Of a stretch of DNA of 8,085 nucleotides, positions 4,752-7,172 are shown one piece after another. The notes below the pieces were generated by a model. It had not been told where the DNA came from. It ran no database searches and saw only the letters and a program-made list of their open reading frames with translations. The position numbers and the translations under genes were made by a program. How positions within the stretch are numbered: position 1 is the first letter of the stretch; every line of letters begins with the position of its first letter. This stretch comes from a virus (lineage: Duplodnaviria; Heunggongvirae; Uroviricota; Caudoviricetes), in IMG/VR virus record IMGVR_UViG_2534682338_000005, one strand, 5' to 3'.

Positions 4752-4794
4752 AAAAACGGCGGCAGAGCAGTCACGGAGTAAAACTGATACCGCC
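4752..4794 (-). terminator. Intrinsic terminator forming the DicF 3' end
   Basis: On the minus strand, GGCGG (4790-4794) pairs with CCGCC (4758-4762) around an internally structured loop, followed directly by a 5-U run (4752-4756). Confidence 0.7.
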
Positions 4795-4809
4795 AAACGT
4801 CACCAGAAA
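4752..4809 (-). ncRNA. dicF: DicF small RNA (Hfq-dependent antisense regulator of ftsZ and other mRNAs)
   Basis: Minus-strand sequence TTTCTGGTGACGTTTGGCGGTATCAGTTTTACTCCGTGACTGCTCTGCCGCCGTTTTT matches my recollection of the ~53-nt DicF RNA and ends in its terminator hairpin plus U-run. Position between ydfC-like and dicB is as in the Qin dicB operon. Ends are approximate (+/- 3 nt). Confidence 0.8.
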
Positions 4810-5084
4810 ATTGATAACAGAGGGCGTTGCAGCGGGGTTGTCACTTAAGCGTATGGTCAACCTGACAACTCGGTGTCCTCAACGGGGAAGGAATAACCCC
4901 GCCATACTTACCGCCGCGCCATTTCGCGGGTTGCCACAACCGGAAGCGCACGGTCGAATTAAATTTAACGACACCGTACAGTGAGACGAACTTCGCCGTG
5001 CGCTTTCGTGTTGTGTGCCTGCTTTTAACCACGTCAGGCGAGGTGGTATCCTTCTTATTCCGAATAACCAAGAAGGAAATCTAT

Positions 5085-5285
5085 ATGACTAAAGAAGAAT
5101 TTGTCTCTTATATTTTTGATAAAACGGTTGAAATGTATGCCGCTACTTACGGGTCCTGTAATCCTCTGAATAAACCAGAGGGGAAAGATGATTTCGACAA
5201 AATTTACCGCTTCTTGGAGGACCGCTATATCAAAAGGTTAGAGGACGCAGGGATCAAATCCCCAGTGAAGTCACCATTGTCCTGA
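5085..5285 (+). CDS. Hypothetical small acidic protein (66 aa), convergent to the leftward operon; candidate only
   Basis: ATG at 5085-5087 preceded by a strong SD AAGGA (5073-5077) with 7-nt spacer; ORF MTKEEFVSYIFDKTVEMYAATYGSC...KSPLS. AT-rich coding sequence next to a GC-rich structured region. 3' end overlaps the ydfB/C-like 3' end by 32 bp on the opposite strand. No homolog recognised and no clear promoter. Confidence 0.3.
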   Translation: MTKEEFVSYIFDKTVEMYAATYGSCNPLNKPEGKDDFDKIYRFLEDRYIKRLEDAGIKSPVKSPLS

Positions 5286-5619
5286 GAACTTGCAGGACGT
5301 CATGATCGTAACTTCCATCCAAACCGCGACGGCAAATTGCTTCTCGTATTACCGGAAGCAGTTCGCTGGAAATCTCGGTGCATATTTCACCTGATAATAC
5401 GCCTGGCTCAAGTGAGAATATTGGTGAACTTACGGTCTTGGTCTCGACAGTTTCAGAGTCAGTGCCAACATTATAAAGCTCAACGAAAGCGGTCTTGATT
5501 TTCCGGGCCAGATCTTTTGCTGGCTCGCTTGCAATATCTTTCCCGATTTCTCGCAGCACAGAATGCAATGTATGAGCTGCTGTTTTCTGTACATCAGACG
5601 GTAAATCTTTAAATTCCAT
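5254..5619 (-). CDS. YdfB/YdfC-like prophage protein (single 121-aa ORF spanning what is split as ydfB + ydfC in K-12 Qin)
   Basis: ORF with ATG at 5617-5619 (MEFKDLPSDVQ...) preceded by GAGG with 6-nt spacer; a further upstream ATG (5629-5631) overlaps the ydfA-like stop (TGATG) but lacks an SD. Stop TGA at 5254-5256. Sits at the ydfB-ydfC position after ydfA-like; total span (~366 bp) matches the ydfB+ydfC span I recall. Confidence 0.7.
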   Translation of the reverse strand: MEFKDLPSDVQKTAAHTLHSVLREIGKDIASEPAKDLARKIKTAFVELYNVGTDSETVETKTVSSPIFSLEPGVLSGEICTEISSELLPVIREAICRRGLDGSYDHDVLQVLRTMVTSLGI

Positions 5620-5630
5620 CGTCAGCCTCA

Positions 5631-5783
5631 TCAGTCAGTGTTTCTGGCTAACCAGCAACGCGCGCCAGATTCGGTTTTAAACGTTTTGCTTTTGGTATAT
5701 GTCATCGCGGTGAACGTACCGTCCTGGTTGGGGAACACGCCACATACCAGAGATTCGCTGTTGCCAAGATCGATAGTATCCAT
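5631..5783 (-). CDS. ydfA: YdfA-like small prophage protein (DUF1391-type)
   Basis: 50-aa ORF MDTIDLGNSESLVCGVFPNQDGTFTAMTYTKSKTFKTESGARCWLARNTD. ATG at 5781-5783 preceded by GAGG with 5-nt spacer. First gene downstream of the operator/promoter region that follows the repressor gene, the position of ydfA in Qin. ORF-track start at 5837 rejected. Confidence 0.8.
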   Translation of the reverse strand: MDTIDLGNSESLVCGVFPNQDGTFTAMTYTKSKTFKTESGARCWLARNTD

Positions 5784-5861
5784 GCTGACCTCATTTCCCC
5801 TTAACGCCGGGGTCGCGGAACTGTTTGCTGAGAACACCGTGCGGTGTCTTGATGGAAAGTA

Positions 5862-5879
5862 ATTTAGAATAACCTAACA
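5862..5879. promoter_or_regulatory. Operator-like site, imperfect (ATTTAG-N6-CTAACA), leftward early promoter region
   Basis: Same 6+6+6 architecture as the perfect palindromes at 5898-5915 and 6409-6426. Lies over a candidate leftward promoter (minus strand TTGCCT-17 nt-TAAATT) upstream of the ydfA-like gene. Confidence 0.45.
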
Positions 5880-5897
5880 TGAGAGGCAAGTGTTTTT

Positions 5898-5915
5898 TGT
5901 TAGATTGATCTAACA
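5898..5915. promoter_or_regulatory. Operator, perfect palindrome TGTTAG-ATTGAT-CTAACA (candidate DicA-like repressor site, OL-like)
   Basis: 9-bp perfect inverted arms TTGTTAGAT / ATCTAACAA (5897-5916) about 40 bp downstream of the repressor stop and upstream of the ydfA-like gene. Same half-sites and spacing as the site in the divergent promoter region. Confidence 0.65.
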
Positions 5916-5951
5916 AAAAGAGTGGGCGCAACTAATCACTTGAAAAGAATG

Positions 5952-6359
5952 TTATTTTATTGATTTATTTTTACGCGCTTTAAGCATTTCTTCGAAGAGT
6001 TTGTTGAAGTTTTCTACTCTTGCGCGCATTTCAGACAGCAAGGCTTCCTGCTCGGAAGATGGAAGAGCATCGAATAATTCGATCAATTCTTTGTGGTTGG
6101 GAGTTAGCTCTGTTTCCACATGAAGTTCTTGTGCAGGCACTGGTGCCTTGTCTTCGTCACCAAACATTAGCCATGTAGGTGAGCACTTCAGAGCATCCGC
6201 TAAAGCAAACAATCGTTTTCCGACTGGCTGGGTTTCGTCTCTTTCCCATTGTGAAATTGTGACGTGAGCAACTCCAGCGAGGCGCGCAGCTTCTCGTTGT
6301 GTTAAGCGTAATTCTTTTCGTCGCGCCAGAACTCGCTGGCCTAGGGTTCTTGTATCCAT
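5952..6359 (-). CDS. dicA: DicA-like HTH (XRE-family) prophage repressor, CI functional analog
   Basis: 135-aa ORF, ATG at 6357-6359, stop TAA at 5952-5954. N-terminal HTH_XRE signature (LRLTQREAARLAGVAHVTISQWERDETQP), and the C-terminal segment CSPTWLMFGDEDK...EMRARVENFNKLFEEMLKARK resembles E. coli DicA as I recall it. Divergent from the Cro-like dicC with operators between them. Confidence 0.88.
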   Translation of the reverse strand: MDTRTLGQRVLARRKELRLTQREAARLAGVAHVTISQWERDETQPVGKRLFALADALKCSPTWLMFGDEDKAPVPAQELHVETELTPNHKELIELFDALPSSEQEALLSEMRARVENFNKLFEEMLKARKNKSIK

Positions 6360-6377
6360 AGTTAGGTAATTCTAATT
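6360..6377. promoter_or_regulatory. Operator-like site, imperfect (AGTTAG-GTAATT-CTAATT), adjacent to the repressor start
   Basis: Same 6+6+6 architecture as the consensus palindrome; immediately upstream of the dicA-like ATG in the divergent intergenic region. Confidence 0.4.
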
Positions 6378-6381
6378 TTTC

Positions 6382-6409
6382 TTGACTTAGGTATCCCGCG
6401 CACAATAAT
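6382..6409 (+). promoter_or_regulatory. Candidate sigma-70 promoter for dicC-like/early-right operon (pR analog)
   Basis: -35 TTGACT (6382-6387), 16-nt spacer, -10 AATAAT (6404-6409). The perfect operator begins at the 3' end of the -10, so repressor binding would occlude the start site. Confidence 0.55.
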
Positions 6410-6426
6410 GTTAGAAAAGTCTAACA
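6409..6426. promoter_or_regulatory. Operator, perfect half-sites TGTTAG-AAAAGT-CTAACA (OR-like)
   Basis: Inverted repeat with identical half-sites and spacing to 5898-5915; overlaps the -10/+1 of the rightward promoter, 13 nt upstream of the dicC-like ATG. Confidence 0.65.
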
Positions 6427-6439
6427 AGAGGGGGCTTTG

Positions 6440-6667
6440 ATGCTTAAAGTTGACGCAATTACTTTTTTTGGCAGCAAAACAAAGCTTGCCAATGCCGCAG
6501 GAGTGAGACTGGCAAGTGTTGCTGCTTGGGGGATACTGGTTCCTGAAGGTCGCGCGATGCGTCTACAGGAGGCATCTGGCGGGGAGCTTCAGTATGATCC
6601 CAAAGTTTATGACGAATATCGTAAGACGAAGCGGGCGGGGCGGTTGAACAATGAAAATCACTCCTGA
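6440..6667 (+). CDS. dicC: DicC/YdaS-like Cro-type regulator
   Basis: 75-aa ORF from ATG 6440 (ORF track starts at TTG 6437), SD GAGGGGG 5 nt upstream. Sequence MLKVDAITFFGSKTKLANAAGVRLASVAAW...LQEASGGELQYDPKVYDEYRKTKRAGRL is typical of small DicC/YdaS-type regulators. Divergent from the repressor. Confidence 0.85.
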   Translation: MLKVDAITFFGSKTKLANAAGVRLASVAAWGILVPEGRAMRLQEASGGELQYDPKVYDEYRKTKRAGRLNNENHS

Positions 6668-7172
6668 ACAGGCTCGTGAGGCTCTGGATGCCTGGATATG
6701 TCGACCAGGAATGACACAGGAGCAGGCGACGATATTAATCACTGAAGCATTCTGGGCTTTGAAAGAGCGCCCGAACATCGATGTTCAGCGTGTCACATAT
6801 GAAGGTGGCGCGGTTGATCAGCGAGCGCTTAGCGTTAATCGAGTGAAGATATTCGAACGCTGGAAGGCTATCGACACCAGGGATAAGCGTGAAAAGTTCA
6901 CAGCGCTAGTGCCTGCAATTATGGAGGCTATCCGGATTAGTGATTTCAGGTTGTATCGTGAGATCAGTGATGGAAAAAGTATTACGTACATGATCGCCGG
7001 GTTAAATAAAGAATATGGCGATGTGGTGGAATCCGGACTGCTTTTTGCAGATCCTGCCGTTGTAGATCGTGAAACTGACGAACTTATAGAAAAAGCAATT
7101 GCTTTCAAGCTTGCGTATCGACAGCAATACCAACAAAAAGCTGGATGGAATTATGAGTCTTCTTTTTGCTGA
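6651..7172 (+). CDS. YdaT-like protein at the cII position (putative CII functional analog / regulator)
   Basis: 173-aa ORF whose ATG (6651-6653) overlaps the last 17 nt of dicC-like, suggesting translational coupling. Internal segment DKREKFTALVPAIMEAI resembles the YdaT family as I recall it. Sits between the Cro-like and replication genes. Confidence 0.65.
   Translation: MKITPEQAREALDAWICRPGMTQEQATILITEAFWALKERPNIDVQRVTYEGGAVDQRALSVNRVKIFERWKAIDTRDKREKFTALVPAIMEAIRISDFRLYREISDGKSITYMIAGLNKEYGDVVESGLLFADPAVVDRETDELIEKAIAFKLAYRQQYQQKAGWNYESSFC

Follow-up and report, generated by a model that had tools for sequence, protein, structure and literature searches.

The four inverted repeats flanking the repressor gene in the stretch of DNA analyzed here (8,085 nucleotides, hereafter the window) are very probably the operators of a lambdoid immunity switch of the Qin (DicA/DicC) type (probability about 0.85). 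Two of these sites (5898-5915 and 6409-6426) are perfect TGTTAG-N6-CTAACA palindromes and two (5862-5879 and 6360-6377) are degenerate. The sequences and positions of the sites, their conservation and their covariation with the helix-turn-helix of the repressor were established in this analysis. Proposals for operators of the dicA/dicC switch date back to 1986–88 and the half-sites are identical to those of the known K-12 operator, so the finding is a rediscovery: the window has these half-sites next to a repressor allele that has diverged, within a prophage that is more complete. As a discovery it counts for little, and its value is practical, as annotation of the four sites, the promoters and the presumably leaderless start of the repressor can be carried over to 564 E. 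coli genomes, each with a match to at least 80% of the 1.1-kb region.

Gene context, promoters and perfect palindromes

The window is part of an E. coli prophage that is lambdoid, Qin-like and fairly intact; a 100%-identical prophage carries integrase, excisionase, exonuclease, replication, lysis and head genes, together with the antirepressor gene rem, annotated outside the window (L002, 25627-25878). The DicA-like repressor gene (5952-6359, minus strand) encodes 135 aa, with an HTH_3 N-terminal domain and a short helical C-terminal part. The protein is 57% identical to K-12 DicA, and its residues 1–71 resemble the N-terminal domain of P22 C2 (E = 1.3e-18), with PDB matches also ending at residue 71. 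HTH_3 (E = 1.5e-14) was the sole Pfam domain type identified, and no S24 peptidase or oligomerisation C-terminal domain was detected in a Pfam search that returned helix-turn-helix families only, in keeping with the non-S24 XRE-type repressor of the earlier note; RecA-mediated autocleavage is therefore not expected. The divergent DicC-like (Cro-like) gene (6440-6667, plus strand; 75 aa; Pfam P22_Cro, E = 4.9e-12) encodes a protein that shares 86% identity with K-12 DicC and 93% with the DicC of PPompW, a heteroimmune phage, and a CII-like YdaT homologue (6651-7172) is encoded to its right. On the other side of the repressor gene, the minus strand carries ydfA (5631-5783; DUF1391 in Pfam) and the DicF RNA (4757-4808; Rfam, 72.5 bits), with dicB and ydfD farther left. 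For the repressor gene, the Cro-like gene and the leftward genes, this context agrees with the earlier note.

A promoter scan identified a sigma-70 promoter for the dicC-like operon (6382-6409, plus strand; 10/12 consensus positions), with a −35 TTGACT (6382-6387), a 16-bp spacer and a −10 AATAAT (6404-6409). The predicted operator at 6409-6426 (TGTTAG-AAAAGT-CTAACA, no mismatch) begins on the last base of this −10, spans about −7 to +11, and matches the K-12 site Oc both in its half-sites and in its position relative to the −35 and −10. In K-12, DicA occupies Oc (TTGTTAGTCATAACTAACAA) in vivo, and through this site dicC is repressed and dicA activated; a single A-to-C change in CTAACA abolishes DicA binding, Oc-dependent repression needs dicA, and the promoter is arranged as in the window, with a mapped dicC start site (PMC3441716). 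The DicA site has also been annotated at −8 to +12 of dicCp (bioRxiv 10.1101/2025.05.13.653802).

On the left side, we infer a promoter equivalent to dicBp or PL (5863-5891, minus strand), with a −35 TTGCCT (5891 down to 5886), a 17-bp spacer and a −10 TAAATT (5868 down to 5863). It matches 8/12 consensus positions, below the threshold of the promoter scan, which did not pick it up, and it would drive ydfA, DicF, dicB and ydfD. In K-12, DicA represses dicBp, which is located upstream of ydfA (PMC10448788), and the location of DicA binding at dicBp has been stated to be unknown (PMC7567609). The second perfect palindrome, 5898-5915 (TGTTAG-ATTGAT-CTAACA), is predicted to be a promoter-distal operator, 6 bp upstream of the leftward −35 (about −42 to −59).

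Direct reading of the sequence placed both perfect sites at the coordinates given in the earlier note, and this motif, present twice in the window, was not found in any of 200 dinucleotide-preserving shuffles. No third leftward operator was found 24–25 bp beyond 5898-5915, where positions 5917-5949 vary freely among prophages with the same repressor allele. The search of 41 kb of identical prophage plus flanks for further sites yielded a single additional match with two mismatches (L002, 33069), which is within chance. The conserved leftward leader (about 5790-5850) was also considered as a potential structured RNA; it had no match in Rfam, its folding was no better than that of shuffled sequences (z = 0.32) and RNAalifold gave only a 4-bp helix, so this candidate was rejected.

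Conservation and covariation among relatives

The relatives fall into three specificity groups (A, B and C), in which the half-site sequence changes together with the repressor helix-turn-helix, giving a simple code that leads from one to the other. Repressors with TQR in helix 2 pair with TGTTAG..CTAACA, the Oc-type half-sites being present in 75/76 such loci, sampled via the protein. Repressors with SQA in helix 2 and an unchanged helix 3 pair with (C/T)CTTAG..CTAAGG, and the phage mEp460, with SQN and the helix 3 SGSSISLWE, has ATTGAG-N4-CTCAAT, at site spacings (36 bp and 49 bp) equal to those of the window.

The four-site layout recurs, at repressor identities of 48–100%, in 75 distinct regions, which come from Escherichia, Citrobacter, Buttiauxella and viral contigs. 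Counted from the repressor ATG, two sites are at +1 and +50/51, and the other two are 36–48 and 71–81 bp below the stop codon; a site at 36–48 bp, the position of 5898-5915, was found in all group A loci. The promoters are also maintained: the rightward −35 is conserved in all specificity groups, and the TTG of the leftward −35 has the same offset in 72/73 distinct group A regions, with TTGACC, TTGATC and TTGACG standing there in K-12, Enterobacter and mEp460. The centre-to-centre spacing of the leftward pair ranges from 33 to 37 bp, which argues against rigid, helically phased cooperative contacts.

The earlier note had made its reading depend on the conservation of the palindromes in prophages with the same repressor allele, and such conservation was observed. 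Among 54 same-allele loci, which were found through the repressor protein and not through the motif, only 1/48 half-site columns varied, versus 46/129 of the other columns. The corresponding values were 0/24 versus 35/76 on the left side (Fisher p = 1e-5) and 1/24 versus 11/53 on the right side. For 5898-5915, five of the six spacer columns and none of the half-site columns varied among 27 same-allele haplotypes. A scan of viral contigs for TTGTTAG-N6-CTAACAA yielded 120 stretches, with a DicA homologue on 43 of the fetched stretches; these viral loci were chosen for one perfect site and do not provide independent evidence for that site. Campylobacter hits in the genome-contig scan aligned to residues 82–115 only and were discarded as not being relevant homologues.

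Degenerate sites and the proposed switch

The predicted promoter-proximal leftward operator, 5862-5879 (ATTTAG-AATAAC-CTAACA), has two mismatches, both in the left half, and overlaps the inferred leftward −10 and spacer (about −6 to −23). The other degenerate site, 6360-6377 (AGTTAG-GTAATT-CTAATT, three mismatches), directly adjoins the repressor ATG (6359). The names Oa, Om and Oc are those of PMC3441716, and we take Oa to be the site adjoining the ATG, so that 6360-6377 is considered Oa-type. This site had been thought to overlap the rightward promoter; it was instead found to lie 5 bp upstream of the −35 of that promoter, on the leftward promoter and start codon of the repressor itself. On its minus strand, 9 nt ahead of the ATG, is TAGAAT (6374 down to 6369), which resembles a −10 hexamer, and no Shine-Dalgarno sequence precedes this start codon. 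The K-12 dicA mRNA is leaderless (PMC4681348, Fig. 2).

The positions of both degenerate sites were confirmed by direct reading, and comparison with relatives supports them, whereas significance within the window does not. With up to three mismatches allowed, the window contains six matches versus 2.7 expected, and six or more were reached in 17/200 shuffles; the degenerate sites are consequently not significant alone. Their offsets from the repressor gene are the same in every relative with the same helix-turn-helix type, and their half-site bases are invariant among same-allele prophages, in which spacers and flanks vary; in 6360-6377, all 18 of 18 columns are invariant among same-allele haplotypes.

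It might nevertheless be argued that only the perfect palindromes are operators, with the degenerate sites conserved as core promoter DNA and their operator resemblance partial and incidental. Under this alternative, to which we give a minor share of the probability, 6360-6377 would be the −10 and start of a leaderless repressor transcript and 5862-5879 the leftward −10 and spacer. The lack of significance of either site alone fits with such an explanation, as do several features of the relatives. The hexamer within 6360-6377 is TAGAAT or TAGCAT in 75/75 distinct group A regions, and the site retains the same degenerate form despite differing DicA specificity, as AGTTAG..CTAA[AT]T in 74/76 TQR-type loci and TATTAG..CTAA[AT]T in 17/18 group B loci. 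The left half of 5862-5879, ATTTAG, coincides with the inferred −10 and is constant across all specificity groups, and in K-12 no binding of DicA in vivo was seen with Oa or Om cloned on its own (PMC3441716, data not shown in that paper). The conservation of 6360-6377 and of this left half could reflect promoter function alone. However, the right half of 5862-5879 differs between specificity groups, being CTAACA in A, CTAAG(A/G) in B and CTCATT in C, as expected of an operator half-site, and 6360-6377 keeps the full TTAG-N6-CTAA, including bases that the −10 hexamer does not need. Furthermore, in K-12 the counterpart intergenic region is bound by DicC, which represses dicA 48- to 84-fold; the strongest DicC ChIP-seq signal was at the dicA locus, with one site inferred by the authors to each side of dicA (PMC11430063). 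Both roles could in any case be combined in one site, as for a lambda OR3 site lying over PRM.

Regulators other than DicA and DicC are very improbable as the main users of the palindromes, even if the host TetR-family protein YjdC has been reported on the K-12 dicC operator region (PMC9283627) and inverted repeats of the 6-N6-6 type in the immunity region of the Rac prophage are targets of YdaT homologues (PMC11879457), which brings the CII-like protein encoded at 6651-7172 into consideration. The half-sites covary with the DicA helix-turn-helix rather than with a host factor, the YdaT box in the literature (TTGATT-N6-AATCAA; PMC11879457) differs in sequence, and the Oc-dependent repression described above requires dicA (PMC3441716). 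A candidate YdaT box spanning the ydaT-like start codon (6644-6661, TTGAAC-AATGAA-AATCAC) was rejected, as six matches with up to three mismatches were found versus seven expected. Short palindromes are abundant in AT-rich promoter regions and the degenerate sites are within chance expectation, but the view that all four sites are functionless chance repeats is effectively refuted. The shuffles rule it out for the perfect sites and the comparative data alone for the degenerate ones, with positions conserved across genera and half-sites invariant while spacers vary, and the matching K-12 site has been validated experimentally (PMC3441716).

A further element, which did not appear in the earlier note, is weakly supported as an Om-like middle half-operator. 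Read from the sequence at 6385-6402 (ACTTAG-GTATCC-CGCGCA, five mismatches), it keeps the TTAG core in its left half and has a poor right half, overlaps the dicC promoter at its −35 and spacer and lies 24–25 bp away from either neighbour. The sequence at the corresponding offset (+26) in K-12 is ACTATG-TTTTTG-TTAACA, the three K-12 sites lying at +1, +26 and +51, and in group C the TTAG beside the −35 is replaced by TTGAG.

With the four sites read as an operator set, a DicA-like dimer on the right side would bind 6409-6426, over the edge of the −10 and the start point of the dicC-like promoter, blocking the rightward operon (Cro, YdaT and replication) and, by analogy with K-12, stimulating the weak promoter from which the repressor itself would be expressed as a leaderless mRNA. 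On the left side, the repressor would occupy two sites, 5898-5915 immediately ahead of the −35 and the weaker 5862-5879 across the −10 and spacer, silencing ydfA, DicF, dicB and ydfD. During switching, 6360-6377 most likely acts like OR3, filled by the Cro-like DicC or by excess repressor, and its occupancy would shut off repressor synthesis after the switch flips. Induction would be expected to proceed via the antirepressor Rem and not via RecA cleavage, because the repressor has no S24 domain; K-12 DicA has no RecA cleavage site and is countered by Rem, the signal inducing Rem being unknown (PMC10448788). For the biochemical steps, namely binding of DicA to Oc, repression of dicC and dicBp, autoactivation, binding of DicC and repression of dicA, the leaderless mRNA and the action of Rem, we rely on the K-12 literature. 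The assignment of each site to DicA or DicC, the leftward promoter hexamers and any cooperativity are what we infer.

The preference of the two proteins, which the earlier note considered not to be evident from the sequence, is partly resolved by the comparison with relatives: the outer operator bases vary with the DicA type, and the published DicC motif, TT[ACT]G..C[GAT]AA (PMC11430063), agrees with the inner TTAG/CTAA core. The 6360-6377 site retains only this inner core. Since K-12 Oa alone was not bound by DicA, 6360-6377 is better read as an OR3-like site that is probably preferred by DicC, by analogy with lambda. It is possible, and we propose it only tentatively, that DicA alleles read the outer operator bases and DicC the inner core only, with 6360-6377 being an OR3-like site used by DicC alone and anti-immunity not being allele-specific. 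The outer bases concerned are TG/CA with TQR in helix 2 and CC/GG with SQA. This proposal is consistent with the near identity of DicC (93%) between groups A and B, which are heteroimmune, and with the retention, in both groups, of the inner core only in the degenerate site over the presumably leaderless repressor promoter. If it is correct, a heteroimmune resident could have its repressor shut off by the DicC of another prophage or of a superinfecting phage, releasing DicB and DicF, and DicA alleles that are 48–100% identical would be cross-immune, because TGTTAG/CTAACA is common to them.

Comparison with known systems

The closest known counterpart is the cryptic K-12 prophage Qin, which occupies the same chromosomal site, beside rspB, and has the same gene order, with dicC divergent from dicA, followed by ydfA, dicF, dicB and ydfD. 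The half-sites TGTTAG/CTAACA are identical, the offsets are the same (+1 and +50/51), two sites lie in the dicA-ydfA spacer, and the repressor is of the same non-cleavable 135-aa type, with rem present in the prophage studied here. The two loci differ in that both K-12 leftward sites are degenerate (two mismatches each), whereas the distal one is perfect here; the spacers and the middle Om sequence also differ, K-12 ydfB and ydfC are replaced by other ORFs in the window, and this prophage is much more complete than Qin.

The immC region of P22 also has divergent repressor and cro genes. The recognition helix core V-x-ISQWE is common to P22 C2 and the repressor of the window, the Cro-like protein belongs to Pfam P22_Cro, and each operator is an inverted repeat of 18 bp whose half-site contains TTA, as in the window. 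The P22 operator is ATTTAAG-N4-CTTAAAT, whereas the half-site here is TGTTAG, with only two clear sites per side. The repressor also differs from the P22 type in having no C-terminal S24 peptidase or oligomerisation domain.

The operators on both sides of the repressor gene follow the lambda OR/OL logic proposed in the earlier note, in agreement with the K-12 literature and the comparative data. As in lambda CI/Cro, they flank the repressor gene at the rightward and leftward early promoters, and one site overlaps the repressor's own promoter, which gives a leaderless mRNA in lambda and, by K-12 analogy, probably also here. In lambda, OR3 overlaps the PRM promoter. The Cro-type protein of lambda shares the operators, as the DicC-like protein may do, and the rightward sites may share the lambda spacing, at about 24–25 bp, if the Om-like half-operator is counted. 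In contrast, the repressor here belongs to a different fold family, differs in size and has no S24 domain, the strongest leftward site lies upstream of the −35 and not over the −10, and the centre of the activating Oc lies near −58 relative to the start of the repressor, unlike lambda OR2, which is centred at −42. The DicA type also differs from lambda in being induced by an antirepressor (PMC10448788). In this respect it resembles the Gifsy-type Salmonella repressors GfoR/GfhR, which are short, lack a cleavage domain and are inactivated by a small antirepressor, a likeness to DicA/Rem already drawn in PMC10448788.

Probable operator sites around the repressor gene

All four palindromes of the TGTTAG-N6-CTAACA type were found exactly where the earlier note placed them: two perfect sites, TGTTAG-ATTGAT-CTAACA (5898-5915) and TGTTAG-AAAAGT-CTAACA (6409-6426), and two degenerate sites, ATTTAG-AATAAC-CTAACA (5862-5879, 2 mismatches) and AGTTAG-GTAATT-CTAATT (6360-6377, 3 mismatches). 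However, the inventory of four overlooked a weak middle half-operator, ACTTAG-GTATCC-CGCGCA (6385-6402), 24-25 bp from both its neighbours, the K-12 counterpart of which is the site at +26. Two perfect sites are far above chance (0 in 200 shuffles), but up to 3 mismatches gave 6 matches versus 2.7 expected, a count reached by 17 of the 200 shuffles, so evidence from elsewhere is required for the two degenerate sites.

The sites flank the gene for an HTH_3 repressor of 135 aa (5952-6359, minus strand), between DUF1391/ydfA (5631-5783, minus) and the genes for a P22_Cro-family protein (6440-6667, plus) and a YdaT-family protein (6651-7172, plus); the DicF RNA lies at 4757-4808 (minus). The Cro-like protein shares 86% identity with K-12 DicC. 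Over residues 1-71 the repressor matches the N-terminal domain of P22 C2 (E = 1.3e-18), its conserved C-terminal part reads ALPxSEQ...RARVENFNKLFEELLKAR, and a domain search of the 135-aa protein revealed no S24 domain, in agreement with its description as a non-S24 repressor.

A 1.1-kb test region of the window was 100% identical to a lambdoid prophage common to many E. coli chromosomes, with matches covering at least 80% of it in 564 of 5426 complete genomes. In strain 104, this prophage adjoins rspB, at the same chromosomal site as the cryptic Qin prophage of K-12, and contains, besides the repressor and Cro pair, ydfD, dicB, rem and a YdaT-family gene, an antiterminator, genes for integrase, excisionase and exonuclease, and genes for replication, lysis and the head. 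The rem gene of this prophage lies outside the window (25627-25878 of the strain 104 stretch, L002); Rem relieves DicA repression in K-12, whereas the repressor of the window is only 57% identical to K-12 DicA. K-12 DicA has no RecA cleavage site and its antagonist is the antirepressor Rem (PMC10448788); given this, the absence of S24 and the presence of rem, induction is expected to occur through Rem rather than RecA. K-12 ydfB and ydfC are absent, their place being taken by two ORFs (regions 4998-5285, plus, and 5254-5631, minus). One, of 125 aa and without a Pfam match, directly follows ydfA; the other, oppositely oriented and annotated as hypothetical in strain 104 (CDS about 5085-5285), is located within the leftward operon on the upstream side of dicF.

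Conservation and specificity of the sites

The four-site layout was kept in every relative found by protein or DNA similarity in which repressor helix 2 begins with TQR (comparison with Escherichia ruysiae, E. albertii, Citrobacter, Buttiauxella, K-12 and phage PhiR42_1). Two of the sites are at +1 and +50/51 relative to the ATG and the other two 36-48 and 71-81 bp past the stop codon, with free variation of the 6-bp spacers. Scanning viral contigs for TTGTTAG-N6-CTAACAA yielded 120 stretches, and a DicA homologue (48-100% identity) was present on 43 of the 120 fetched. Scanning by protein, with no reference to the motif, gave 80 loci, in 54 of which the repressor shares at least 99% identity with that of the window. 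In these same-allele prophages, where a loss of the palindromes would have refuted the operator reading, the palindromes are conserved: among distinct haplotypes, 0/24 half-site columns vary in the leftward region versus 35/76 others (Fisher p = 1e-5), and 1/24 versus 11/53 in the rightward region. The spacer of 5898-5915 varies in five of its six columns.

The operator half-sites covary with the repressor helix-turn-helix across three groups, but the relatedness of loci in each group reduces this to a few independent events, and no formal statistic is attached. Group A (helix 2 TQR, helix 3 (A/S)HV(T/S)(I/V)SQWE; 76 loci) has TGTTAG..CTAACA at the Oc position in 75/76. Group B (helix 2 SQA, helix 3 as in A; 18 loci, from PPompW, Enterobacter, Pantoea and Erwinia) has (C/T)CTTAG..CTAAGG. 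Group C (helix 2 SQN, helix 3 SGSSISLWE; phages mEp460 and HannyBb) has ATTGAG-N4-CTCAAT, and its four sites have the 36-bp and 49-bp spacings of the window. Helix 2 of group B, SQAALGK, is almost identical to the RQAALGK of P22 C2, and Cronobacter phage phiES15 has a different helix-turn-helix (TQQ / SSVSVFKWE) and, in its leftward region, CTAAC-AAAA-GTTAG, with half-sites in the opposite orientation; these observations suggest that the DicA family contains more specificity classes.

On both the ydfA and the ydaT side, phages mEp460 and HannyBb share 96-99% identity with the window, but their repressor (52% identical), Cro and operator cassette is a different one. As the cassette differs between near-identical flanks, and its left junction coincides with ATTTAG (5862-5867) in the promoter-proximal site of the leftward pair, the immunity module is swapped as a unit, including its own operators and excluding the leftward-promoter -10.

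Promoters and probable roles of individual sites

The leftward pair lies, as claimed, at a putative promoter downstream of the repressor gene. Our reading of the sequence places a putative -35 (TTGCCT, 5891 to 5886, minus strand) 17 bp from a -10 (TAAATT, 5868 to 5863), with 5862-5879 over the -10 and spacer and 5898-5915 just upstream of the -35, the TTG of which has the same offset in 72 of 73 distinct regions and equivalents in all groups. The right half of 5862-5879 changes with the specificity group, while the left half, ATTTAG, is constant and also serves as the -10. The centres of the pair are 33 to 37 bp apart among relatives, versus a fixed 49-50 bp for the rightward outer pair, so any leftward cooperativity would need a flexible connection. 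The leader (5790-5850, minus), between the putative start (about 5856) and the ydfA ATG (5783), contains blocks CCATC, CTCAG and GTTCCGC, unchanged in Escherichia, Citrobacter, Buttiauxella, Enterobacter, Pantoea and phiES15, and a 6-N6-6 inverted repeat with taxon-dependent arms (GACACC..GGTGTT in the window, AATCAC..GTGATT in Enterobacter); it had no Rfam match and folded no better than shuffles.

The assignment of the other pair to the rightward promoter (-35 TTGACT, 6382-6387; -10 AATAAT, 6404-6409) holds for 6409-6426, which spans about -7 to +11, like K-12 Oc, and when occupied would repress the Cro/YdaT/replication operon by simple steric hindrance. It does not hold for 6360-6377, which appears to coincide with the -10 and start point of the repressor gene itself, since TAGAAT or TAGCAT occurs at the same place upstream of the ATG in 75/75 distinct group A regions and the K-12 dicA mRNA is leaderless (PMC4681348, Fig. 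2). The sense strand reads AATTAGAATTACCTAACT-ATG, and no Shine-Dalgarno sequence was found upstream of this ATG.

Site 6360-6377 is conserved as a degenerate sequence, AGTTAG..CTAA[AT]T in group A and, in group B, TATTAG..CTAA[AT]T. It retains the inner TTAG/CTAA that fits the DicC motif and lacks the outer bases, which are those that vary with the type of DicA. Because only the inner core is kept, and DicC shares 93% identity between the window and heteroimmune PPompW versus 66% for the repressors, this is probably an OR3-like site preferred by DicC. Protein preference, previously considered not evident from the sequence, is thus partly readable by comparison. A general division, with the outer bases read by DicA and the core by DicC, seems to us rather doubtful; if true, anti-immunity would be non-allele-specific.

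The sequence TTGAAC-AATGAA-AATCAC (6644-6661) extends across the YdaT-family start codon (6651), a placement shared with the published YdaT box of the Rac and CP-933P prophages, TTGATT-N6-AATCAA (PMC11879457). Taken alone, its 3 mismatches to that box leave it short of significance (6 matches versus 7 expected).

Comparison with the K-12 dic locus

The reading of the palindromes as operators is supported by the K-12 literature as well as by our comparative tests. DicA binds in vivo to Oc (5'-TTGTTAGTCATAACTAACAA) in the dicA-dicC spacer, repressing dicC, and dicA transcription requires DicA there; a single A-to-C change in CTAACA abolishes binding, and Om and Oa, operators predicted from sequence, failed to bind DicA when each was cloned by itself (PMC3441716). 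Annotation places the DicA site at -8 to +12 of dicCp (bioRxiv 10.1101/2025.05.13.653802). DicA also represses dicBp, upstream of ydfA, and acts with DicC as a bistable switch (PMC10448788). The DicC ChIP-seq signal is strongest at the dic locus, where its authors infer one site on each flank of dicA, with the palindromic motif TT[ACT]G ... C[GAT]AA; DicC represses dicA 48- to 84-fold (PMC11430063). The same four positions are occupied in K-12, by a perfect TGTTAG-TTATGA-CTAACA at +51 from the dicA ATG, AGTTAG-CTAATG-CTAAAT at +1, and TGTATG-CTATAG-CTAACA and GATTAG-CCATGA-CTAACA in the dicA-ydfA spacer. The sites in the window are therefore the known dic operators rediscovered in another allele, and the window is a new allele-level member of the known dic system.
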